A stretch of 64,000 bases of DNA, taken from an uncultured Gemmatimonadales bacterium (GTDB taxonomy: Bacteria > Gemmatimonadota > Gemmatimonadetes > Gemmatimonadales > GWC2-71-9). A program made the translations under genes and the position numbers. This document shows positions 14,933-25,556 of the stretch, piece by piece; the first letter of the stretch is position 1; each line of letters opens with the position of its first letter. Below the pieces are notes generated by a model, which was given only the letters and a program-made list of their open reading frames with translations, was not told the origin of the DNA and searched no databases. The stretch spans positions 1,888,001-1,952,000 of the forward strand of contig CAWHFW010000005.1 of assembly GCA_963828735.1 (NCBI GenBank). Reading direction: 5' to 3'.

Positions 14933-15261
14933 GGGCGTCTCCTGTGGGAGCCGGAAAGAGGGGTTGGATCAGTGATACCAGTCCCGGAGGGGTCGCGCCA
15001 GGGCGGACCTCCGATATCGCCTCCACGCGCGACGGCGTCTTTTCCGCCGGACGGTGGAAAGTCACCCATCGGGCGTAACCTATGGAGAGGGCGTGCCTTC
15101 AGGCCCGCGGCTCGTCGGGTCGAGACGAGGCCAAGAGGATGCGAGGCGCGAACACGGGATATGCCGGACGCCAAGGCCTCCGGGACGATTTGTCTCCCGC
15201 GGTGCCCCGTCCGTCGCCCGCCGCTTACCTGCCGCCGGGACGGTGGTATTTTACGTGTCCC

Positions 15262-15975
15262 ATGCAGACCTCTCAGGGCGTCCGGCCCCTCCGACTGACC
15301 CTCGCGCTCCGCCTGGCATCTCTGGCCCTCGCCGGGACCTTCGCCGCCTGTGGCGGCTCCGCCCAGCATGAGACGGCCGCCGCCCCGTCGCCCCAGCCGC
15401 CCGCCAACGCCGAAGAGCTCGCGGCGATCGCCCGGGCCCGGGCCGACAGCGCGCGCCTGCCCTCCACCGAGGCCGACGCGCAGTTCATGACCGGCATGAT
15501 CAACCACCACGCGCAGGCGATCGTCATGGCCGGCTGGGCGCCGAGCCACGAAGCCAGCCCGTCCATCCAGACGCTGTGCGCCCGGATCATCAACGCGCAG
15601 CGCGACGAGATCGCCACGATGCAGACGTGGCTGCGCGATCGCGGGCGCCCGGTGCCGGAGCCGGTGCCCGGCCCGATGAAGATGAAGATGAACGGCATGG
15701 AGCATGAGATGCTCATGCCGGGCATGCTGACCGAAGAGCAGATGCACCAGCTCGATCAGGCGCGCGGCGAGGAGTTCGACCGGCTGTTCCTCACCTTCAT
15801 GATCCAGCACCACAAGGGCGCCGTGTCCATGGTGAAGGATCTGTTCGGCTCGTACGGGTCCGCGCAGGACGAGACCGTGTTCAAGTTCGCCAACGACGTC
15901 AGCGTCGATCAGTCCACCGAGATTGCCCGGATGGAGAAGATGCTGGCGGCCCTTCCGCCTTCCCAGCCCTCGTGA
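15262..15975 (+). CDS. DUF305 (ferritin-like) lipoprotein
   Basis: Lipobox FAAC; ADAQFMTGMINHHAQA and FLTFMIQHHKGA double-His motifs; Met-rich linker. Confidence 0.88.
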   Translation: MQTSQGVRPLRLTLALRLASLALAGTFAACGGSAQHETAAAPSPQPPANAEELAAIARARADSARLPSTEADAQFMTGMINHHAQAIVMAGWAPSHEASPSIQTLCARIINAQRDEIATMQTWLRDRGRPVPEPVPGPMKMKMNGMEHEMLMPGMLTEEQMHQLDQARGEEFDRLFLTFMIQHHKGAVSMVKDLFGSYGSAQDETVFKFANDVSVDQSTEIARMEKMLAALPPSQPS

Positions 15976-15992
15976 CCTCCAAGGAACCCGTC

Positions 15993-17945
15993 ATGGCTCT
16001 CGCGTCGCTCCGATCCCTGTCGCTCATGCTCGGCCTCGCGGCCGTGTCGGCCTGCGCTCACTCGACCTCGAGCACGGGCAACATGTCCGCCACCCCGCCG
16101 AGTCCCGATCCGCGCGTGGGCCTCAAGGCCGGCCTCTTCGACGCGCAGGAAGCCACCTGGAACCTGCGCGTGCTGTCGAAGACGCCGCCGTCGGAGAAGT
16201 TTCTCGGCATCACGAATTCCGACCTGAGCTTCACCGGCAAGTACGCCATCCAGGGCAGCTACAACGGGTACCAGGTCTGGGACATCACGGATCCGGGCAA
16301 GCCGCGACTCGAGACCGCCTACGTCTGCCCCGCGTCGCAGAGCGACGTGTCGGCGTACAAGAACCTGCTTTTCGTCTCCGGCGAGGGCCTGAGCGGCCGG
16401 CTCGACTGCGGCACGGAAGGCGTGCCCGACACGGTCAGCAAGGATCGCCTGCGCGGGCTTCGCATCTTCGATATCAGCGACATCGCGCATCCCAAGAACG
16501 TCGGCAACGTACAGACCTGCCGGGGCTCGCACACGCACTCGGTACTGGTGGACCCCAAGGACACCGAGAACGTGTACGTGTACATCTCGGGGTCGTCGAA
16601 CGTCCGTTCGCCGAGCGAGCTGGCCGGCTGTGTAAGCGCCGCGCCGGATCAGGACTCGGCGTCGGCGCTGTTCCGGATCGAAGTCATCAAGGTTCCGCTG
16701 GCGCATCCGGAGCAGGCCGCCATCGTGAGCTCGCCGCGCATCTTCCAGGACCTGGCGGCGCCGCCCAAGCACGGCGAGGCGGCGGAGGACATGGCGAAGA
16801 TCAAGGACGCGGAGGCCAAGGGCGCCTTCGTGGCCTCGTTCATGGGCATGCATCAGATCCTGAGCAAGGAGGACGGGGATTCGCTGGTGGCGATGGTGAT
16901 GAAGAGCCGCGACCGGACCGGCACGCCGACCGCGGAGGACAGCGCGGCAGCCCGTGAGGCGCTCCCCGGCATCGTGGCCAAGATGGTTGGTCCGTCGAAT
17001 ACCGGGCCGACCCAGTGTCACGACATCACCCTGTATCCGGCGATCGGCCTGGCCGGTGGTGCGTGCGGCGGCTACGGCCTGCTGCTCGACATCAGCGATC
17101 CGGTGAACCCCAAGCGGATCGGGGCCGTGTCCGACTCGAACTTCTCCTACTGGCACTCGGCGACGTTCAACAACGACGGCACCAAGCTGCTGTTCTCGGA
17201 CGAGTGGGGCGGCGGCGGCCAGCCGAAGTGCCGGGCCACCGATCCCAAGGAGTGGGGCGCCGACGCCATCTTCACGCTCGCCGACCGGAAGATGACCTTC
17301 CAGAGCTACTACAAGATGCTCGCGCCCCAGACGCAGCAGGAGAACTGCGTCGCTCACAACGGCTCGCTGATCCCCATCCCCGGCCGCGACGTGATGGTGC
17401 AGGCGTGGTATCAGGGCGGCATCTCGGTCTTCGACTGGACCGACGCGGCGCACCCGAAGGAGATCGCCTTCTTCGACCGCGGCCCCGTGGACTCGACCAA
17501 GATGGCCAGCGGCGGCTCGTGGTCCATCTACTGGTACAACGGCGTGATGGTGAGCTCGGAGATCTCTCGCGGGCTCGACATCTTCGAGCTCACGCCGAGC
17601 GCGTTCATCTCGCAGAACGAGATCGACGCGGCCAAGAGCGTCCACTACGATTACCTGAACGTGCAGGGGCAGAACAAGATCGTGTGGCCCGCGACCTTCG
17701 CGCTGGCACGGGCGTACCTGGACCAGCTCGAGCGGGAGAAGGGTCTGGACGAGGGCCACATCTCGTCGGCGCGGAAGGCGCTGGCCGATGCGGAGAAGGC
17801 CTCGGACACCAAGCGGCAGGACGAACTGTCCGCCCTCGCCTCGGAGCTGGATGGGGAAGCCAAGAGCGCGAGTGACCCGACCAAGGTGCAGGCGGCCGCC
17901 GGCGCCGTGCGCGGCCTCGCCTCCGAAAAGACCGCGATGCGGTAG
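15993..17945 (+). CDS. LVIVD-repeat lipoprotein (usual DUF305 partner)
   Basis: Lipobox VSAC; NSDLSF, QTCRGSHTH, QCHDIT, YWHSATF, NCVAHNG; alternative start 15972 overlaps DUF305 stop. Confidence 0.82.
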   Translation: MALASLRSLSLMLGLAAVSACAHSTSSTGNMSATPPSPDPRVGLKAGLFDAQEATWNLRVLSKTPPSEKFLGITNSDLSFTGKYAIQGSYNGYQVWDITDPGKPRLETAYVCPASQSDVSAYKNLLFVSGEGLSGRLDCGTEGVPDTVSKDRLRGLRIFDISDIAHPKNVGNVQTCRGSHTHSVLVDPKDTENVYVYISGSSNVRSPSELAGCVSAAPDQDSASALFRIEVIKVPLAHPEQAAIVSSPRIFQDLAAPPKHGEAAEDMAKIKDAEAKGAFVASFMGMHQILSKEDGDSLVAMVMKSRDRTGTPTAEDSAAAREALPGIVAKMVGPSNTGPTQCHDITLYPAIGLAGGACGGYGLLLDISDPVNPKRIGAVSDSNFSYWHSATFNNDGTKLLFSDEWGGGGQPKCRATDPKEWGADAIFTLADRKMTFQSYYKMLAPQTQQENCVAHNGSLIPIPGRDVMVQAWYQGGISVFDWTDAAHPKEIAFFDRGPVDSTKMASGGSWSIYWYNGVMVSSEISRGLDIFELTPSAFISQNEIDAAKSVHYDYLNVQGQNKIVWPATFALARAYLDQLEREKGLDEGHISSARKALADAEKASDTKRQDELSALASELDGEAKSASDPTKVQAAAGAVRGLASEKTAMR

Positions 17946-18025: not shown

Positions 18026-18083
18026 GATACCTTGACATCTAGGTATCGGCGCCCCACACTAGAGGCAGGCATAGACCTCTAGG
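18026..18083 (+). promoter_or_regulatory. Sigma-70-type promoter overlapped by two palindromic PadR operator candidates
   Basis: TTGACA (18032-37), 17 nt, CACACT (18055-60); CCTTGACATCTAGG (18030-43) and CATAGACCTCTAGG (18070-83). Confidence 0.6.
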
Positions 18084-18091
18084 TGGAGCCC

Positions 18092-18424
18092 ATGTCCGTC
18101 CCCGCGAAAGACCGCCTCCACGGCACGCTCGACGCTCTCATCCTCAAGACCCTCACCTGGGGCCCGCGCCACGGCTACGCCGTCTCGCGCTGGCTCCGGG
18201 ACACGAGCGGCGACGCGATCCAGGTCGAGGAGGGCTCGCTCTATCCCGCGCTCTACCGCATGGAGCGGCAGGGATGGATCGAGGCGGAATGGGGGACGTC
18301 GGAGCTGGGCCGCAAGGCGAGGTTCTACCGGCTGACGGGCAAGGGCCGGAAGCAGCTCGCGGCGGAGACCGAGCGGTTCGCCCAGTTCGTGGCGGCGGTC
18401 TCGCCCATTCTGCTGCCGGGCTGA
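18092..18424 (+). CDS. PadR family transcriptional regulator (acidobacterial type)
   Basis: GTLDALILKTL..GPRHGYAV, EEGSLYPALYRME, ARFYRLT. Confidence 0.93.
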   Translation: MSVPAKDRLHGTLDALILKTLTWGPRHGYAVSRWLRDTSGDAIQVEEGSLYPALYRMERQGWIEAEWGTSELGRKARFYRLTGKGRKQLAAETERFAQFVAAVSPILLPG

Positions 18425-18427
18425 CCG

Positions 18428-21097
18428 ATGGCCGCCGTCGGTCGGGTCGGTCGCCAGCTCCGCTCGCTTATCTGGCGGGACAGCGTCGCCGATGAGGTGG
18501 ATGCCGAGCTCGACTTCCACCTCGAGATGGTCACGCGCGAGCTGACTGAACGGGGTATGGCCCCCGAGGAGGCCCGCGCGGAGGCGCTGCGCCGCTTCGG
18601 CGATCTGGCAGCGGTCAGCGCCTCGTGCCGCAGGATCGGCCTCGATCGCGAACGCGCGGAGCGCCGCACCGAGTATCTCGCCGAGCTGCGTCAGGATGCG
18701 GGTCACGCCCTGCGGCAGCTCCGCCGCGCGCCCGGGTTCACGGCCGTCGCCCTGCTCACCCTCGTCCTCGCGATCGGCGTCAACACATCGATCTTCAGCG
18801 CGGTGAGCGCGGTGCTGTTACGCCCGCTGCCGTACCCCAACGCGGGCCGCCTCGCGGTCCTGTGGTCGTCATCGCCGTCGCTCGGCGACCAGCGCCGGGT
18901 TCTCGTCGCCTATCCCGACCTGGTCGAATGGCGGGCGCGCAACCGGACCTTCCAGGATCTGGGGTTCGCCCGGACACAGAGCGTCAACCTGACCGGCACC
19001 GAGCAGCCCGACCGCCTGGTCGGTTGCTTCGTCACCGCGAACACGCTGCGCCTGCTCGGCGCCCGCGCGGCGCTCGGCCGCCTGTTCACCGACGCCGAGA
19101 CCGCCGAGGGCACGAGCCAGCGAGTCGCGGTGCTCTCGCACGCCGCCTGGACCTCGCGCTACGGGGCGGATTCCGGCATCCTCGGGCGCACCATCGTGCT
19201 CAACGGGCTGCCGCACGTGATCGTCGGCGTCACCGCGGCGGACTACCAGGATCCGTTCGGGCCCCCCGAGGTGTGGCTTCCGGTCACCTCGCCGCCCAAC
19301 CAGAGCTGGCTCACGCGGCAGAATCCGTCCTTCTGGGCGATCGGGCTGCTCAAGCCGGGCGTCACGCCCGCGCAGGCGTCGGCCGACCTGGCCGGCATCG
19401 CGAAAGCGCTCGCGGCGGAATATCCGGCCAGCAACGCCGGTGTGGACGCGTCCCTGGTGATGCTCCGCGATTACCTCGTGGGCGATGTTCGTGCCGGCCT
19501 GCTGATCCTGCTCGGCTTCGTGGCGTTGATCCTGCTGATCGCCTGTGCCAACATCGCCAACCTCCAGCTCGCGCGGGCGACGGCGCGGCGGCGGGAGATC
19601 TCGCTCCGGGCGGCGCTCGGGGCGGGCCGGCCGCGCCTGGTGCGCCAACTCCTCACCGAAAGCGTCGTGCTCGCGCTGATCGGCGGCGCCGCCGGCGTGC
19701 TCGTCGCGCACTGGGCGATCGCCGCGCTGGTGGCGGCCGTACCCGGCGGGCTCCCCGTCTTCGGCCCCGTCGGGCTCGACCGGCGGGTGCTGCTCTTCTC
19801 GGTCGCCATCACCGTCGCGGCCGGTCTGCTGTTCGGCGCGGTGCCCGCCCGCTACGCGACGCGAGCCGACCTGGCCGACGCGCTCCAGAACCGCTCCGGT
19901 GACGGCAGCGCCGGCGGGCGCGGCGACGTGCGCAACACGTTCGTCGCGATTCAGCTGGCGCTCTGCATCGTGCTGCTGGTGGGCGCGGCCCTGCTCACGA
20001 GGAGCTTCGCGCGATTGCAACAGGAGAAGATGGGATTCGAGCCCGAGCACCTGATCACCGCCGAATTCCGGCTCCCGGCCACCAAGTACACCAACGACAC
20101 CGTGATCGCTCAGTTCGCCGACCAGGCCCTCGAGCGGATCCGGGCCGTGCCCGGCGTGCGGTCGGCGGCGCTCGTCGGCTCGGTGCCGCTGAGCGGCAAC
20201 TGGGGCACGACGAACTACCTGCCCGACGGACGCACTCCGCCGGCGGACGGCGCGCTGCCGACCACGCAGATCAACGCCGTGACCGACGGCTACTTCGGCA
20301 CGATGCGCATCGCGTTGCTCGAGGGCCGCGACTTCTCGCCGGCCGACCGTATGGGCGCCGAGCCGGTGGCCATCGTAAATCGGGAGCTGGCCCAGCGGGC
20401 CTGGCCGGGCGAGTCGGCGATCGGCAAGCGGATGAAGATCGTCGGGCCGCCCGATGTCGTGGCGACGGTGGTCGGCGTCGTGGGTACCATCAAGCAGTTC
20501 ACCATGACCGAGCCCGCGGAGGCCCAGCTCTACGTCGCGAAGGCGCAGAACCCCGGGATCTTCTCGAGCGTGGCGGCCCGGACGGTAGGCGATCCCGACG
20601 CACTCGGCGACGAGGTGCGTGCCGCGATCTGGTCGGTGGACCGCGACCAGCCGGTCTGGAAGATCCGCTCCATGCATTCCCTGGTCGAACGCGACATGGC
20701 GCCGCACCGATTCACCGCCATTCTGACCGGCGCGTTTTCGCTGCTCGCGCTCCTGCTCGCGCTGATCGGCGTGTACGGCGTGATGTCGTATGCGGTGGCG
20801 CAGCGGACGCGGGAGATCGGGATCCGCATCGCGCTCGGCGCGGCGCGAGGTGAGGTCGTGCGCATGGTGCTGTGGCGCGGGCTTCGCATCGTCGGGATCG
20901 CGACCGCCCTCGGCCTGTGCGCGGCGTACGGTGCGGCGCGGCTGATCGAGCGGCAGCTCTTCAACGTATCGCCCACGGATGTGGTGACGTTCGTGGGCGC
21001 GCCGGCGGTGCTCGCGGTGGTGGCGGCGCTCGCGTGCTGGGTGCCCGCGAGGCGAGCCGCACGCGTGGATCCGGCCGTCGCGCTCCAGAGCGAGTAG
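18428..21097 (+). CDS. ADOP-type duplicated MacB/FtsX ABC permease (no adjacent ATPase)
   Basis: DEVDAELDFHLEM prefix, LRRAPGFTAVALLTL, LLIACANIANLQLAR, QRTREIGIRIALGA, PARRAARVDP. Confidence 0.93.
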   Translation: MAAVGRVGRQLRSLIWRDSVADEVDAELDFHLEMVTRELTERGMAPEEARAEALRRFGDLAAVSASCRRIGLDRERAERRTEYLAELRQDAGHALRQLRRAPGFTAVALLTLVLAIGVNTSIFSAVSAVLLRPLPYPNAGRLAVLWSSSPSLGDQRRVLVAYPDLVEWRARNRTFQDLGFARTQSVNLTGTEQPDRLVGCFVTANTLRLLGARAALGRLFTDAETAEGTSQRVAVLSHAAWTSRYGADSGILGRTIVLNGLPHVIVGVTAADYQDPFGPPEVWLPVTSPPNQSWLTRQNPSFWAIGLLKPGVTPAQASADLAGIAKALAAEYPASNAGVDASLVMLRDYLVGDVRAGLLILLGFVALILLIACANIANLQLARATARRREISLRAALGAGRPRLVRQLLTESVVLALIGGAAGVLVAHWAIAALVAAVPGGLPVFGPVGLDRRVLLFSVAITVAAGLLFGAVPARYATRADLADALQNRSGDGSAGGRGDVRNTFVAIQLALCIVLLVGAALLTRSFARLQQEKMGFEPEHLITAEFRLPATKYTNDTVIAQFADQALERIRAVPGVRSAALVGSVPLSGNWGTTNYLPDGRTPPADGALPTTQINAVTDGYFGTMRIALLEGRDFSPADRMGAEPVAIVNRELAQRAWPGESAIGKRMKIVGPPDVVATVVGVVGTIKQFTMTEPAEAQLYVAKAQNPGIFSSVAARTVGDPDALGDEVRAAIWSVDRDQPVWKIRSMHSLVERDMAPHRFTAILTGAFSLLALLLALIGVYGVMSYAVAQRTREIGIRIALGAARGEVVRMVLWRGLRIVGIATALGLCAAYGAARLIERQLFNVSPTDVVTFVGAPAVLAVVAALACWVPARRAARVDPAVALQSE

Positions 21098-21103
21098 TGC
21101 CCT

Positions 21104-22201
21104 CTACCGCACCACGAACAACCCCACCTTCCCCCCGAACCCATCGTCCACCGCCGCGGTCCCCTCCGGTACCGTCCACTCCCCGCCATCGAACCGCACG
21201 TTGAGGTGATGGACCCCGGGGCTCAAGGCCACCGGCATCGTCCACCGTCCCGGCCCGTCGGGCGCGAGCGGCCGGGGCTCCCAGTCGGTGAAGTCCCCCA
21301 TCACCTCCGCGTTGCTCACCGGCGGACCGACGATCGCGATCCGACTCTGCGTGGCGACCACGAGGCGCGGCGTTCCTGCGGTAGCCGCGACGGCGGGCTC
21401 GGGCGACCGATGCCGTCCACGCCGCGGCGGGGCGCCGAGGGCCACCCGTATACCGAGCGTGCCGTAGCGCGCCCCGGGCACGGCGAGCCCGAACTGGGGC
21501 AGCGAGTGGCCCGCGGCGCCGACCAGTCCCAGGCTCGGCGCGAGCCACCAGACGGCGCTGGCTTCCCAGGCCGTGCGCCGGATGCCGGTGCCCCCCATCC
21601 GCCGCACCAGGCTGAACCCGACCTCGTAGCTGCCGAGTCCGAGCGTCGCGCGGGTACCCAGGTCCGTGTATTCGGCGATCCGGCGTCCCGGTACGCTGTC
21701 CACTCCGCTCAGGGTGTCGCCCGCCTGTCCCAGGTCATTCCCGCCGAGCGGGTGTGAGCCGAAGCTGGTGTGACTCATCCATACGTGGACGCCCGCGGGT
21801 CCGATCACCTGGCGCAGGCCGCCCTCGATCCGCGCGAGCGCGGATGTCACCCCAACGCCGGCCCTGCCGAAGGCCGCGCCGAGCCACACGCCGGTCCGCT
21901 CGCCGCGCGTGTGCAGCCGGCCGCCCACGTCCCAGCGCACCGCCGTCCGCTCGGCGGGGTCGCTGCTCAGCCCGACGTTGCCGAGCAGCTCGGGCTCGAG
22001 ACCCAACAGCGTCCCGGCCCGGTAGCTCGCGCCCAACGCGCCCTGGGTGAGGGCGCCGTCGGTATCGAGCTGATCCCACGCCGCTTGGCCGGTGCCGAGA
22101 TCCACCGTGCCCCCGAATTGAAGCGCGGCGAGCGCCGTGGCGCGCACCAGACAGAGCGCGGCCGCGGCGGCGGTCCGAAGGATCCGGCCTCGTGCGCTCA
22201 C
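21104..22201 (-). CDS. Exported beta-strand-rich (probable outer-membrane) protein with C-terminal glycogen-binding CBM48/AMPK-type domain
   Basis: Signal peptide; amphipathic beta strands; EVMGDFTDWEP...GRW...LSPGVHHLNVRFDGGEW...DDGFGG. Confidence 0.75.
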   Translation of the reverse strand: MSARGRILRTAAAAALCLVRATALAALQFGGTVDLGTGQAAWDQLDTDGALTQGALGASYRAGTLLGLEPELLGNVGLSSDPAERTAVRWDVGGRLHTRGERTGVWLGAAFGRAGVGVTSALARIEGGLRQVIGPAGVHVWMSHTSFGSHPLGGNDLGQAGDTLSGVDSVPGRRIAEYTDLGTRATLGLGSYEVGFSLVRRMGGTGIRRTAWEASAVWWLAPSLGLVGAAGHSLPQFGLAVPGARYGTLGIRVALGAPPRRGRHRSPEPAVAATAGTPRLVVATQSRIAIVGPPVSNAEVMGDFTDWEPRPLAPDGPGRWTMPVALSPGVHHLNVRFDGGEWTVPEGTAAVDDGFGGKVGLFVVR

Positions 22202-22737
22202 GGTGAGGTCACCGCTGGCCGGAGCCGGTCGCGGAGGTCGAGAAACTCCTGCTCATCGCCGCCGCGCGCGGCCAGGTCCGCAACCGAATGCCAGGCCGCG
22301 TCCACCGTCATCCCGCCGGCCACGAGATCGGTGAAGACCGCGAGCGGAACGGCGACCCGGCCATGCGGACCCACCCGCCGCATCTCGGAGACCATGACCG
22401 GCGTCGCCCCCGCGCGGAGGGCCGCGGCCGCGGCGACGATGTCGTCCGCGGCCGTGGTGCGGCCCAGCGCTTCCCTCGCGCGCCGAAGGTCGCCGAGCAT
22501 GCCCTCGACGGCCATCACGATCCGCGGCCCCGGCGCCCCCTTGCTCGAGCCCTCGAGCGCCTTCTGGACGAGCGGCTCGGTGGGTAGTCCTTCGCCGCGG
22601 GCCGAGCTCACGACGGCTTCGACCTGGACCCGGGTCGCCGAATCGAGTCGCGCGGCGAGACGCGGATCCTGAGCCGCGGCGCTCGCCGGGAGCCGGAGCA
22701 GGGTCAGGCACAGCAGGAGCGTCGTCATGCGCAGCAT
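22198..22737 (-). CDS. Secreted helical hypothetical protein
   Basis: Signal peptide ending AAAQ; GLPTEPLVQKALEG; overlaps downstream gene by 4 nt. Confidence 0.75.
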   Translation of the reverse strand: MLRMTTLLLCLTLLRLPASAAAQDPRLAARLDSATRVQVEAVVSSARGEGLPTEPLVQKALEGSSKGAPGPRIVMAVEGMLGDLRRAREALGRTTAADDIVAAAAALRAGATPVMVSEMRRVGPHGRVAVPLAVFTDLVAGGMTVDAAWHSVADLAARGGDEQEFLDLRDRLRPAVTSP

Positions 22738-22741
22738 GTGG

Positions 22742-23269
22742 TCATCGTTGGGCGACGGTGATCACGGAGGTCGGCGTGCCGAAGTCGTCTTCCAGCGCGC
22801 GCGGAGCGGCGGGGTCCCGGCGCCAGCGGGTTCCGTCCACGATGAACGTATAGCGGTACCGGCCGGGCCGAAGCGGGACGGTCACGGTCCAGACCCCGCC
22901 GGCAGCTGGATGGAGCGGCGTCGCGCGCGGGTCCCAGTCATTGAAGTCGCCCACGAGGGTGACGGCGGAGTCCGCGGCGGCGCGGAGCACGAACTCGACC
23001 GTCCGCGTTCCACGATCGGCGCGGATCGGCTCCGCCGTGCGCCGTCCGACGAGCACGCCAAGCGCGAAGACCGCCGCGATCCCCGCCGCCAGCGCGGCGG
23101 TGACCAGCGAGCGGAACCTCGGCGCGGGCACCGCGCCGCCGCCGGCGCGGAGGCGCTCGAGCACGGTGCGCTCGACGCGATCGGAGAGCTCGACGGGGGC
23201 CCGGAGCCGCGCAGCGATGCGCTCGAGGAATGCGTGCTGCTCGGGGTCGGGCCCGTCGTCAGGTCGCAT
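22742..23269 (-). CDS. Single-pass membrane protein with CBM48 / isoamylase early-set domain (putative anti-sigma factor)
   Basis: Short N-terminus, TM helix, VTLVGDFNDWD...GVW...LRPGRYRYTFIVDG..W..DP...DDFG. Confidence 0.82.
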   Translation of the reverse strand: MRPDDGPDPEQHAFLERIAARLRAPVELSDRVERTVLERLRAGGGAVPAPRFRSLVTAALAAGIAAVFALGVLVGRRTAEPIRADRGTRTVEFVLRAAADSAVTLVGDFNDWDPRATPLHPAAGGVWTVTVPLRPGRYRYTFIVDGTRWRRDPAAPRALEDDFGTPTSVITVAQR

Positions 23270-23825
23270 GGGAATCGCCCAGCAGGTCGCGCAGCCGCTC
23301 GCAGGCGCGCTTCACCCGCATCTTGAGCGCGGACTCGCCCGCGCCGGTCAGCTCGGCCATCTGTTCGTAGCTCATCTCCTCGACGTACTTGAGCAGAAAC
23401 GCTTCCCGCTGCTCGGGCACCAGGCGCGCGAGCCCGCGATGGATCTCCTCCTCGTGCATGCTCCGCTCGGCGGGGTGCGCGACACCGAGGGACTCGGCCG
23501 CCTCGATCGGCGCTCGTCGAGCCTCATGGCGTCCGCGCCGGCTCGCCAAGGTCCGGCACCGGTTGACCAGGATGCGGAACAGCCACGCCGCGAAGCGGTC
23601 GGGGTGCCGGCATCGTTCGAGCGACCGATAGGCCAGCGTAAAGGCATCCTGAAGCGCCTCCTCGGCGTCGCTCTCGTTGCCGAGCAGGTGGAAGGCGTAC
23701 CGGCCGAAGCGGAGCCGGTAGCGGGTCATCAGCAGGCCATACGCATCCAGGTCGCCCTGGCGCACGCGCAGGACGAGCTCGGCGTCCGAGGGACTCACCT
23801 CTAGGAGACTCGCCAGGCTGGCCAC
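23259..23825 (-). CDS. ECF sigma-70 factor
   Basis: DAEEALQDAF, FAAWLFRILVNRC (region 2); REAFLLKYVEEMSYEQMAELTG (region 4); alternative GTG start at 23798. Confidence 0.92.
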   Translation of the reverse strand: MASLASLLEVSPSDAELVLRVRQGDLDAYGLLMTRYRLRFGRYAFHLLGNESDAEEALQDAFTLAYRSLERCRHPDRFAAWLFRILVNRCRTLASRRGRHEARRAPIEAAESLGVAHPAERSMHEEEIHRGLARLVPEQREAFLLKYVEEMSYEQMAELTGAGESALKMRVKRACERLRDLLGDSHAT

Positions 23826-23876
23826 GCGTCACATCGGACGGGCGGGAGCCGAGCCGCGGCCATCCGATGTGACGCG
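23825..23876. repeat. Perfect 14-bp inverted repeat with 24-nt spacer
   Basis: CGCGTCACATCGGA (23825-38) and TCCGATGTGACGCG (23863-76). Confidence 0.8.
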
Positions 23877-23963
23877 GCGGCGGCTCTCGAGGTCTTTGGG
23901 GTACAGGTTCGTCAGGCCTGGGCGTCCTAGCACCGACCACCTTCCCGTAGGAGATTCTGCCTC

Positions 23964-24713
23964 ATGCGATTCATCGCGCTGCCGGCGCTGGGTGCCGCGC
24001 TCATGGTACTAGGTTGTGGGCCGGAGACGGTCGGGCCGCGGACCAGCGAGACCGCGCGGCTTCGTCTCGCCAGCGCGTCACCCGACGCGGGTGCGCTCGA
24101 CCTGCTGGTCAATGGAAGGACGGTGGCGCAGGCGGTCGGAAGCACAGCCGCCTCGGCGTCGGCGGTTGTGGACGCCGGGACGGCGACGGGGGAGATCCGG
24201 GCGACGGGGACGGTCTCCGCGCTCGCCTCGGTGCCGCTCGTGCTCGCGGCCGGGAAATCGTACACGGTGCTCGTGGCCGGTCCCCGCCAGGCGCTCACGG
24301 CGATGGTCTCCGTGGACACGGGCTCCACCACACCGGGGATCCCGGTCGAGCCGAACCCACCTCCGCCGGGCGAGCCCATCGACAGCGGCAATCCGCCGCC
24401 CGCGCCGAACATCGTCCGATTCCGGATCATGCACGCGGCGCCGGACGCGCCGCCCCTCGATCCGTACCTCTTGCCCGCCGGCATGCCCCTCGACACGCTG
24501 CCGACTCTGCAGCCGTTCACCTACGGCAGCCTCGCGCTGACGGCGGACCTCGTGCGCGGTCCGGGGCACTATGTGGTGAAGTTCACCGACGCCGGCACCA
24601 CCCACGTCGTGATCGAGTCGGGGGACATCGAAGCGAACGCGGACGAGCTGCTCACCGTGGTGTTGGGGGAGAACGCGGATCGTTCGCTGAGGGTGGATGT
24701 CGTGAGGGAGTGA
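23964..24713 (+). CDS. DUF4397 domain lipoprotein (two repeats)
   Basis: Lipobox VLGC; RLRLASASPDAGALD and RFRIMHAAPDAPPLD repeats with Pro-rich linker; AGGAG RBS. Confidence 0.8.
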   Translation: MRFIALPALGAALMVLGCGPETVGPRTSETARLRLASASPDAGALDLLVNGRTVAQAVGSTAASASAVVDAGTATGEIRATGTVSALASVPLVLAAGKSYTVLVAGPRQALTAMVSVDTGSTTPGIPVEPNPPPPGEPIDSGNPPPAPNIVRFRIMHAAPDAPPLDPYLLPAGMPLDTLPTLQPFTYGSLALTADLVRGPGHYVVKFTDAGTTHVVIESGDIEANADELLTVVLGENADRSLRVDVVRE

Positions 24714-24770: not shown

Positions 24771-25556
24771 CTACGCTTCCCGCGCGAACCGGAGCGGCTT
24801 CTCAATCCCCTTCGAGAAGATCAGGAGGGAGTGCCCGTCCACGCGGTAGCGCTCCGCCGATTGCAACGCCTTGAGATACTTCGCCTCCTGATTCATCAGG
24901 GCCTCCGAGCACGCCATCATCGTCGAGACGAGCGGACCGAACGCGATCGTGGTGTCGGTGATCGTGACCGGCCCGTTGAACTGGTTGCAGGAGCCGCGGC
25001 CCGACACCCGTCCGGCCTCCCGAAATTCCAGCGTGGCACGGGCGTAGTCCATCACCCCTCCACCATTGATGTCCTCGAGGACCCATGTACCCGAAAGCGC
25101 CGAAGTCGCTCCGGGGCCACCCTGAGCGGTCGGTGGCGGCGGTGCCGCTGCGGCCGGCCCGGCGCTGGTCAGCACCAGGTCTACCGCCGTCGGGCGGTCG
25201 CGGGTGATCACGCGCACGACCGCCGTGGTCGTGAACGCGAGCTGTCCACCCATCGTGATCGTGGCCCGCACCGCGTAGTCGTGGCGCGGGTCGATCTTCT
25301 TGGGGTCGAACCGGACGAGGAACGGGAGTGGCACCTGGCGGCCATCCGGCTTGATGGTCGTGTCGGCCACGGCCGCGGCCGCAACGTCCTGCCGCGACAC
25401 ATCGAGGAGCTGCACCCGGACCTCCGCATCCGCAGGCAGCGCCACGCGCTCCCGGTATGTCACGTGTCCGGTCACGGCGGTGGGTGCCCTGGACGTGGTG
25501 GTGTTCCCGGCGCACCCGGTGAGGAGCGCGGCGGCCGCGAGCGCGAAATGTCTCAC
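24771..25556 (-). CDS. YbaY-family lipoprotein fused to META/HslJ domain
   Basis: Lipobox LTGC; VTGHVTYRERVALP..LLDVS..QVPLPF; GSCNQF..STMMAC. Confidence 0.88.
   Translation of the reverse strand: MRHFALAAAALLTGCAGNTTTSRAPTAVTGHVTYRERVALPADAEVRVQLLDVSRQDVAAAAVADTTIKPDGRQVPLPFLVRFDPKKIDPRHDYAVRATITMGGQLAFTTTAVVRVITRDRPTAVDLVLTSAGPAAAAPPPPTAQGGPGATSALSGTWVLEDINGGGVMDYARATLEFREAGRVSGRGSCNQFNGPVTITDTTIAFGPLVSTMMACSEALMNQEAKYLKALQSAERYRVDGHSLLIFSKGIEKPLRFAREA

Follow-up and report, generated by a model that had tools for sequence, protein, structure and literature searches.

We describe a four-gene signalling cassette in a 64,000-nucleotide (nt) window, by which we mean the whole stretch of DNA analysed, on contig C5 (GenBank CAWHFW010000005.1) of an uncultured Gemmatimonadales bacterium with a 4.78-Mb genome of 69% GC. 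The cassette encodes an extracytoplasmic function (ECF) sigma factor, a single-pass putative anti-sigma factor with a CBM48 domain, an exported helical protein, and a predicted 12-strand outer-membrane (OM) barrel with a CBM48-like end, and it is conserved in the phylum Gemmatimonadota. It is a real, uncharacterised variant of single-pass anti-sigma signalling. The pairing of such a sigma factor with an anti-sigma factor bearing a carbohydrate-binding module (CBM), and the hypothesis that the pair senses glycogen, are already in print as a prediction (ECF278s1 in the 2021 classification; this and the other published systems are compared here on the accessible parts of their descriptions). Our literature searches turned up no member that had been characterised or otherwise studied by experiment, and in them neither the helical gene nor the barrel-CBM nor the targets had been described. 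We give an even chance to an RseB-like switch in which both CBMs would dock the helical protein rather than starch, so that the cassette would report the state of the envelope. The features to which we refer are the following.

21104..22201, minus strand: outer-membrane protein of 365 amino acids (aa), with signal peptide, barrel, disordered linker and C-terminal CBM48-like domain
22117-21434 (aa 29-256), minus strand: predicted 12-strand barrel of this protein (AlphaFold2)
21367-21110 (aa 279-364), minus strand: CBM48-like domain of this protein, predicted periplasmic
22198..22737, minus strand: exported protein, all-helical and without a known family, whose signal peptide ends in AQ (aa 22-23)
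22742..23269, minus strand: putative anti-sigma factor of 175 aa, with a cytoplasmic N-terminus of approximately 55 aa, one transmembrane (TM) helix and a CBM48/AMPK-type domain
23104-23048 (aa 56-74), minus strand: TM helix of the anti-sigma factor (hydrophobic segment)
23005-22748 (aa 89-174), minus strand: CBM48/AMPK-type domain of the anti-sigma factor (Pfam)
23259..23798, minus strand: ECF sigma factor, 179 aa from a probable leaderless GTG at 23798 (188 aa from the called start at 23825)
23806..23833, minus strand: predicted autoregulatory promoter, -35 TGTGAC at 23833-23828 and -10 AGTCT at 23810-23806
23868..23895, plus strand: predicted divergent promoter, -35 TGTGAC at 23868-23873 and -10 GGTCT at 23891-23895
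23964..24713, plus strand: predicted target lipoprotein, lipobox Cys18 and two DUF4397 domains

The cassette is conserved across the phylum

The initial annotation of this DNA, made from the sequence alone, had proposed an operon of four tightly coupled genes. The four minus-strand open reading frames (ORFs; 23259-23825, 22742-23269, 22198-22737 and 21104-22201) lie where it placed them, with the 11-nt overlap, 4-nt gap and 4-nt overlap that it described, and the motifs that it quoted, GDFNDW, PGRYRYTFIVDG and GDFTDW, are present in the sequence. The extent that it gave, 21104..23825, holds for the four ORFs; it needs amending at the sigma start, which is probably 23798, and for the transcription-level unit, which probably reaches beyond it to the divergent lipoprotein gene at 23964-24713.

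The gene order, too, is maintained across Gemmatimonadota and is not a product of chance. Of the 301 genomes sampled from the phylum, 189 (approximately 63%) matched a profile of the helical gene, with 1 to 5 copies each. We examined the 150 best profile matches, leaving out 166 weaker ones, and added the loci from a search for the nearest relatives, which are Gemmatimonadales records; this gave 191 loci, some of them duplicated between the two sets. They include 169 complete cassettes (164 unique), and one locus (L101) from an unpublished genome (G156) on which alone no claim depends. All four genes are together in 160 of the 170 untruncated loci (at least 1.4 kb on each side), in the order sigma, anti-sigma, helical protein and barrel in 150 and with the barrel gene in front in 10. 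Nine loci were scored as lacking the barrel-CBM and one as lacking a sigma match; inspection showed a longer barrel in one of the nine (L290), so that the barrel-CBM is missing in 8/170. The sigma, CBM anti-sigma and helical genes occur together in 169/170. The 99 loci fetched last had been picked on the helical gene alone, and the 90 that were scored comprise 78 standard, 5 barrel-first, 6 barrel-less and 1 sigma-less arrangements. In genomes with several copies, all 20 fetched loci are cassettes with sigma factor, CBM anti-sigma factor and helical gene. Fusions of the helical protein with barrel/CBM, read by eye as lacking an internal signal peptide, make up 4 of the 150 best library matches; a further candidate (L214) was left uncounted because it retains a signal-peptide-like stretch. 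The second CBM changes its carrier and is absent from some paralogous cassettes, and the helical gene never leaves the anti-sigma gene. Covariation by mutual information over the 164 unique cassettes (effective number 133) was dominated by phylogeny, the fraction of pairs at z>4 between anti-sigma CBM and helical protein (0.114%) being no higher than that of the cross-membrane control, sigma factor and helical protein (0.121%).

Sigma and putative anti-sigma factors

Hidden Markov model searches agreed with the initial domain calls for the first two genes. The sigma factor matches PF04542 (aa 32-99) and PF08281 (aa 126-178), both above the Pfam cut-off, and TIGR02937 with 69.4 bits against a cut-off of 42.9; it consists only of sigma2 and sigma4 regions with a short linker, the layout of an ECF sigma factor. 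The anti-sigma factor is above both cut-offs, for AMPK1_CBM (43.1 bits) and CBM_48 (41.9 bits), and both families match in 39/39 of its homologues. A single TM peak is seen in 34/39 homologues, and an excess of Lys and Arg on the N-terminal side also in 34/39, the window protein not being among the latter (4 vs 5). Its cytoplasmic part of approximately 55 aa has two conserved helix-like blocks; the class I anti-sigma domain (ASDI) is described as an N-terminal four-helix domain (PMC7406223). The zinc motif HxxxCxxC occurs in 0/39 homologues, and no named anti-sigma Pfam family was found among the 39, apart from one weak DUF2275 match. Separately, a record labelled Clostridia (L031:735-4006) carries a sigma factor, a CBM48 anti-sigma factor with the HxxxCxxC motif, a homologue of the helical gene and a beta-rich exported protein without CBM match; the record may come from a diderm that was binned wrongly, or its layout may be more ancestral.

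Paired predicted promoters and the divergent lipoprotein gene

Two predicted promoters of the form TGTGAC-N17/18-RGT(A/C)T stand back to back, one before the sigma gene and one before the divergent gene, which starts 68 nt past its promoter. TGTGAC is enriched on both strands of the regions upstream of the cassettes. We scanned for GTGAC-N18/19-GT(A/C)(T/A), a motif derived from the 85 training loci themselves. It precedes the sigma gene in 55/85 training and 42/95 held-out loci (39/14757 in random-window controls) and faces the divergent gene in 41/85 and 30/95 (56/14757 in the controls). The strict pattern has only two matches in the 4.78-Mb genome, at 23833(-) and 23868(+), and with a weight matrix the same two sites rank joint first and third; of the other two top sites, one has no credible gene downstream and the other precedes another ECF sigma gene. 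From the promoters, the sigma factor is likely to transcribe its own operon and the divergent lipoprotein gene.

The start codon lies 7 nt past the -10 box in 38/55 motif-bearing loci (6 to 8 nt in 50/55), which points to a leaderless mRNA and to a true start at 23798; in the window, the 179-aa sigma ORF begins at exactly this offset of 7. The GTG at 23798 is probably the start rather than 23825, since the called start falls within the gene's own promoter, and the mRNA is, on this spacing, probably leaderless.

Two other readings of this region were set aside. An inverted repeat before the sigma gene could have been a hairpin or the site of a repressor; it is better accounted for by the two -35 boxes, which face opposite ways, because conservation is restricted to them. 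A large regulon was also considered, and the strict pattern gave 2 to 4 matches in each of five other genomes against 1 to 10 for the reversed control, which is chance level; among the 17 sites in these genomes, only the 2 linked to cassettes precede a lipoprotein gene. A scan for sigma-70 promoters and terminators found none. Elsewhere in the source genome, a second ECF sigma gene (C5:2506043-2506704) has a high-scoring GGTGAC...GGTAT site in front and a lipoprotein-like gene approximately 1 kb downstream, and could have cross-talk with, or be a sister of, the TGTGAC promoter class.

The predicted target in the window matches Pfam PF14344 (72.3 bits, 2 stretches). Of 49 distinct loci with the divergent motif, 42 offered an ORF behind it, and in 32/42 this ORF encodes a lipoprotein, compared with 10 of 30 ORFs picked from 90 loci without the motif and 6/83 at baseline. 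Among 21 hand-picked divergent ORFs, 14 are DUF4382, 4 are DUF4397 and 3 have other prealbumin/Ig folds; 14 further ones comprise 3 DUF4382, 1 DUF4397, 3 carboxypeptidase-regulatory-like and 7 without family. None of these 35 scanned ORFs matched a glycoside hydrolase or a TonB family, and PDB sequence searches with the targets gave weak Ig/SdrD-type matches or none.

Some divergent genes are of another kind. In five loci (L218, L219, L220, L234 and L211) the divergent gene encodes an exported protein of approximately 400 aa that has no Pfam family and is not a lipoprotein; four of the five share an N-terminal start resembling AQLISxKTVPV, and a GG...NPA stretch may be reminiscent of FadL-type barrels. 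The source genome also has two identically scoring DUF4382 genes, inverted and approximately 7 kb apart (C3:237269-245099), which suggests either a duplication with inversion or a repeat arising in assembly.

The helical protein and the outer-membrane barrel

AlphaFold2 models the helical protein as helix throughout, with a predicted local distance difference test (pLDDT) of 91.8. It has no Pfam family (0/42 homologues matched); a fold search with VIA-align gave a designed bundle as the best match (Z 8.7) and no meaningful natural one, and the ESM Atlas returned unnamed Gemmatimonadota clusters only. It carries a conserved motif, K59-x2-EG-x2-K66, found in 133/164 Gemmatimonadota proteins. By analogy with RseB, we propose this protein as a candidate periplasmic guard of the anti-sigma factor. 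Behind the barrel, four loci carry the helical gene again as a second, divergent copy (L004:8503-10176, L006:3250-4963, L008:8185-9900 and L018:4234-4956), and in the first three a DUF4382 lipoprotein gene comes next on the same strand.

The barrel gene falls below the Pfam cut-off for both OMP_b-brl (19.9 bits) and AMPK1_CBM (19.5 bits), and AMPK1_CBM matches at E<=0.01 in 26/36 of its homologues. In the AlphaFold2 model (pLDDT 84.9) the signal peptide leads straight into 12 strands, followed by linker and CBM, and the CBM aligns with AMPK beta2 over 79 residues (VIA-align Z 10.1, root-mean-square deviation 1.9). The best barrel folds are tied (NanC Z 17.7, OMPLA 17.5, KdgM 17.4, and PcoB also at Z 17 to 18), and the ESM Atlas returned generic barrels under 0.9. 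An even number of strands puts the C-terminus of a barrel on the side of its N-terminus, the periplasm; with 12 strands the C-terminal CBM is therefore predicted to be periplasmic. On these models, both CBMs are predicted to lie in the periplasm, beyond the reach of starch or glycogen polymer.

A periplasmic domain on an OM barrel recalls cell-surface signalling, in which the periplasmic domain of the receptor binds that of the anti-sigma factor (PMC9249621). With this geometry in its favour, direct contact in the manner of FecA and FecR, the barrel CBM forming a heterodimer with the anti-sigma CBM and the helical protein serving as chaperone, might be envisaged. However, the barrel model lacks a plug, a TonB box and an N-terminal signalling domain, TonB-receptor families match 0/36 barrel homologues, and barrel-less cassettes exist; we regard this arrangement as highly improbable.

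Glucan sensing or protein docking

The initial annotation proposed a trans-envelope signalling chain for starch or glycogen, with the CBM folds as interaction modules as a fallback. The conserved trans-envelope ECF cassette stands; the starch/glycogen part fits poorly with CBMs predicted to be periplasmic, loss of the K126 equivalent and predicted lipoprotein targets, and the fallback is the better fit. A version that takes the predicted location into account would have maltodextrins arrive via the barrel or arise in the periplasm and bind the Trp platforms of the CBMs, displacing the helical protein or cross-linking the CBMs so that the sigma factor is freed. We consider such oligosaccharide sensing possible, if doubtful.

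The sugar site of AMPK beta1 is described as requiring W100, K126, W133 and N150 (PMC4032982). In an alignment to 1z0m, numbered from W100, the anti-sigma factor of the window has W112, T141, W149 and T167 at these positions and so lacks the complete site; the barrel CBM retains both Trp residues, with Asn at the K126 and Val at the N150 position. The K126 position is Ala/Thr/Ser in 84 Gemmatimonadota anti-sigma factors (Ala 75%, Thr 12%), Val/Ala/Gly in 16 from Desulfovibrionaceae and Asn in 67% of 84 barrel CBMs; in 42 non-cassette CBMs from the same search it is Arg (71%) or Lys (17%). The second Trp is gone in the Desulfovibrionaceae anti-sigma factors, with Val/Thr/Pro at the W133 position. 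Most of the loci L041-L080 belong to many unrelated bacteria with free-standing CBM48 proteins of approximately 100 to 140 aa that have a basic residue at the K126 position; these were used as a control only.

Genomic context bears on the same question. The single PF00128 match in the source genome is a GlgX-like ORF without signal peptide, and 52 of the 189 cassette genomes have no match to glycoside hydrolase family 13 (GH13). No alpha-glucan gene was recognised in the neighbour clusters shown, whose representatives were judged by eye without a family scan. The predicted targets, for their part, are lipoproteins of Ig/prealbumin fold and include no enzyme or transporter for glucans. We favour docking of a protein over glucan binding because the CBMs are predicted to be periplasmic, K126 is lost everywhere, the predicted targets are lipoproteins and GH13 is absent from those 52 genomes.

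Several observations weigh against protein docking, most of them in favour of glucan sensing, which has also been proposed in print for ECF278s1 and agrees with the CBM scores of the anti-sigma factor. Gemmatimonadota retain the two Trp residues, W112 in 100% (a figure that is partly circular through the search seed) and W149 in 88% of anti-sigma factors, and the pair in 100% and 94% of barrel CBMs. Plant AKINbeta2, which lacks K126 and N150, is described as binding starch all the same. Among the top barrel folds are two porins for oligosaccharides, NanC and KdgM, tied with unrelated 12-strand barrels. GH13 is commoner where the cassette is present (137/189 vs 44/112 genomes; strong matches 91/189 vs 19/112; within the window's family 59/89 vs 21/37), an association that ignores genome size and kinship and is thus confounded. 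Of a different nature are the three other DUF4382 genes of the source genome, which have no promoter motif, and the finding that the cassette has no conserved protease gene as a neighbour.

A proposed switch

In the protein-docking switch, the N-terminus of the anti-sigma factor would retain the sigma factor at the inner membrane, by analogy with RseA/RseB and FecA/FecR. The helical protein, seated on the anti-sigma CBM, would shield the anti-sigma factor against proteolysis, and the OM-anchored second CBM would compete for the helical protein or tether it, so that the switch might convey the condition of the periplasm or outer membrane. Were the guard lost, intramembrane proteolysis would follow and release the sigma factor, which would then drive its own operon and lipoprotein synthesis, and fresh guard and brake would reset the system. 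We favour an RseA/RseB-like arrangement because the helical gene never leaves the anti-sigma gene, while the second CBM changes carrier and can be absent or fused to the helical protein.

Alternatively, barrel and helical protein could be outputs or accessories, with the anti-sigma CBM alone sensing a periplasmic glucan, a cell-wall fragment or a misfolded protein and the barrel-CBM helping to export or anchor the lipoproteins. The barrel is dispensable in 8/170 loci, a DUF4382 lipoprotein gene follows barrel and second helical gene on the same strand in three, and the predicted autoregulation extends to the entire operon, which makes its members outputs as well. Yet even between distant phyla, where the genes further downstream differ, the helical gene is found immediately after the anti-sigma gene, and the helical-barrel fusions link helical protein and barrel; we therefore find this division of roles unlikely.

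Relation to ECF278 and to Desulfovibrionaceae loci

The ECF278s1 entry describes, as a prediction, a one-TM putative anti-sigma factor at position +1 with a periplasmic AMPK glycogen-recognition domain, a promoter of GTGAC (-35) and GTATA (-10), and a proposed role in glycogen sensing, in Desulfovibrio and Syntrophobacter (PMC7826278; Casas-Pastor et al. 2021). The cassette likewise has its sigma gene followed by a one-TM anti-sigma gene with this domain, and its Gemmatimonadota promoter consensus, TGTGAC and GGT(A/C)T(A), with -10 boxes AGTCT and GGTCT in the window, matches the one described. Unlike in the cassette, a helical gene, a barrel-CBM, a divergent promoter and targets are not mentioned in the accessible ECF278s1 text. 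In a tree of 61 sigma factors (19 from cassettes, 30 from Desulfovibrionaceae, 10 other ECFs of the source genome and 2 others, the outgroup not being monophyletic), the Gemmatimonadota form a clade (100/99) that is sister (90/84) to a Desulfovibrionaceae clade (100/98) holding presumed ECF278s1 members as well as sigma factors without a CBM anti-sigma factor. To judge from sequence, the cassette works like ECF278s1 and is related to it. The ECF-group classification called for at the outset has thus yielded ECF278s1-like features and relatedness in the tree.

The sigma profile matched 58/121 genomes from the family of a Desulfovibrionaceae record. A CBM anti-sigma factor is encoded in 16 of the top 30 Desulfovibrionaceae sigma loci; all 13 of these 16 that were extended have a homologue of the helical gene, with the K-x2-EG-x2-K motif in 12/13. 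A second CBM gene lies just upstream of the sigma gene in 4/16, and no barrel-CBM was seen among the Desulfovibrionaceae loci listed. Promoters of the form TGTGAC...CGTAT occur, often with a second one before a TPR lipoprotein gene. We tentatively suggest, at well under an even chance, a phylum-spanning class in which a starch-binding fold has been repurposed for protein recognition: the helical protein would shuttle between an inner-membrane CBM48 and an OM CBM48 (carried by a barrel in Gemmatimonadota, probably by a lipoprotein in some Desulfovibrionaceae), so that the state of the OM would be measured without TonB and interchangeable surface lipoproteins driven from the back-to-back promoter.

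In eight Desulfovibrionaceae loci (L197, L199, L200 and L203-L207), a TPR lipoprotein gene (with a weak OmpA-like match in L199) lies downstream of the helical gene, as does a gene for an exported acidic/Gly-rich protein; several of these loci have them behind a second TGTGAC...CGTAT promoter.

Neighbouring genes in the window

Convergent with the end of the cassette are a PadR regulator and an 889-aa MacB/FtsX permease (18083-21097, plus strand), a common pair that is not conserved beside the cassette. Genes for a DUF305 lipoprotein and an LVIVD-repeat lipoprotein form another adjacent pair (15082-17945, plus strand). A lipoprotein with YscW/YbaY-like and META domains (24771-25556, minus strand) is convergent with the DUF4397 gene.

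Comparison with known systems and implications

Like Escherichia coli RpoE/RseA/RseB (PMC8103513), the cassette has a predicted autoregulated sigma factor, a single-pass anti-sigma factor and an exported protein in the guard position. No relation in sequence or fold was found, however: the candidate for the guard consists of helices throughout and belongs to no Pfam family, the periplasmic part of the anti-sigma factor is a folded CBM48, and the cassette has a dedicated OM barrel. With FecIRA it shares an OM barrel with a periplasmic domain encoded beside the sigma/anti-sigma pair (PMC9249621); however, the barrel is small, 12-stranded and plugless, its periplasmic domain is C-terminal and CBM-like, and its sigma factor, unlike FecI, is predicted to be autoregulated (PMC8103513). 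As initially annotated, the cassette resembles neither FecIRA nor a polysaccharide utilisation locus: there is no plug or TonB receptor, and no linked glycoside hydrolase or SusC/D-type transporter among the scanned window neighbours and the 35 divergent ORFs. RsgI anti-sigma factors have CBM sensory domains, and the cassette is like SigI/RsgI of Clostridium thermocellum in having an anti-sigma factor with an extracytoplasmic carbohydrate-binding-type module. Whereas RsgI controls cellulosomal enzymes in a monoderm (PMC10766802), the module of the cassette is predicted to be periplasmic and its predicted targets are lipoproteins.

The cassette offers the first regulatory handle that our searches turned up on the DUF4382/DUF4397 lipoproteins, and its promoter motif, predicted leaderless start and one-gene divergent target make it readily testable by reporter. 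Gemmatimonadota are abundant and genetically almost unstudied. Should the CBMs prove to dock a protein, a CBM48 annotation on anything but an enzyme could no longer be taken to mean glycogen sensing, and the hypothesis for ECF278 would need revision; should they bind maltodextrins, the cassette would be a diderm counterpart of RsgI-type glycan sensing.

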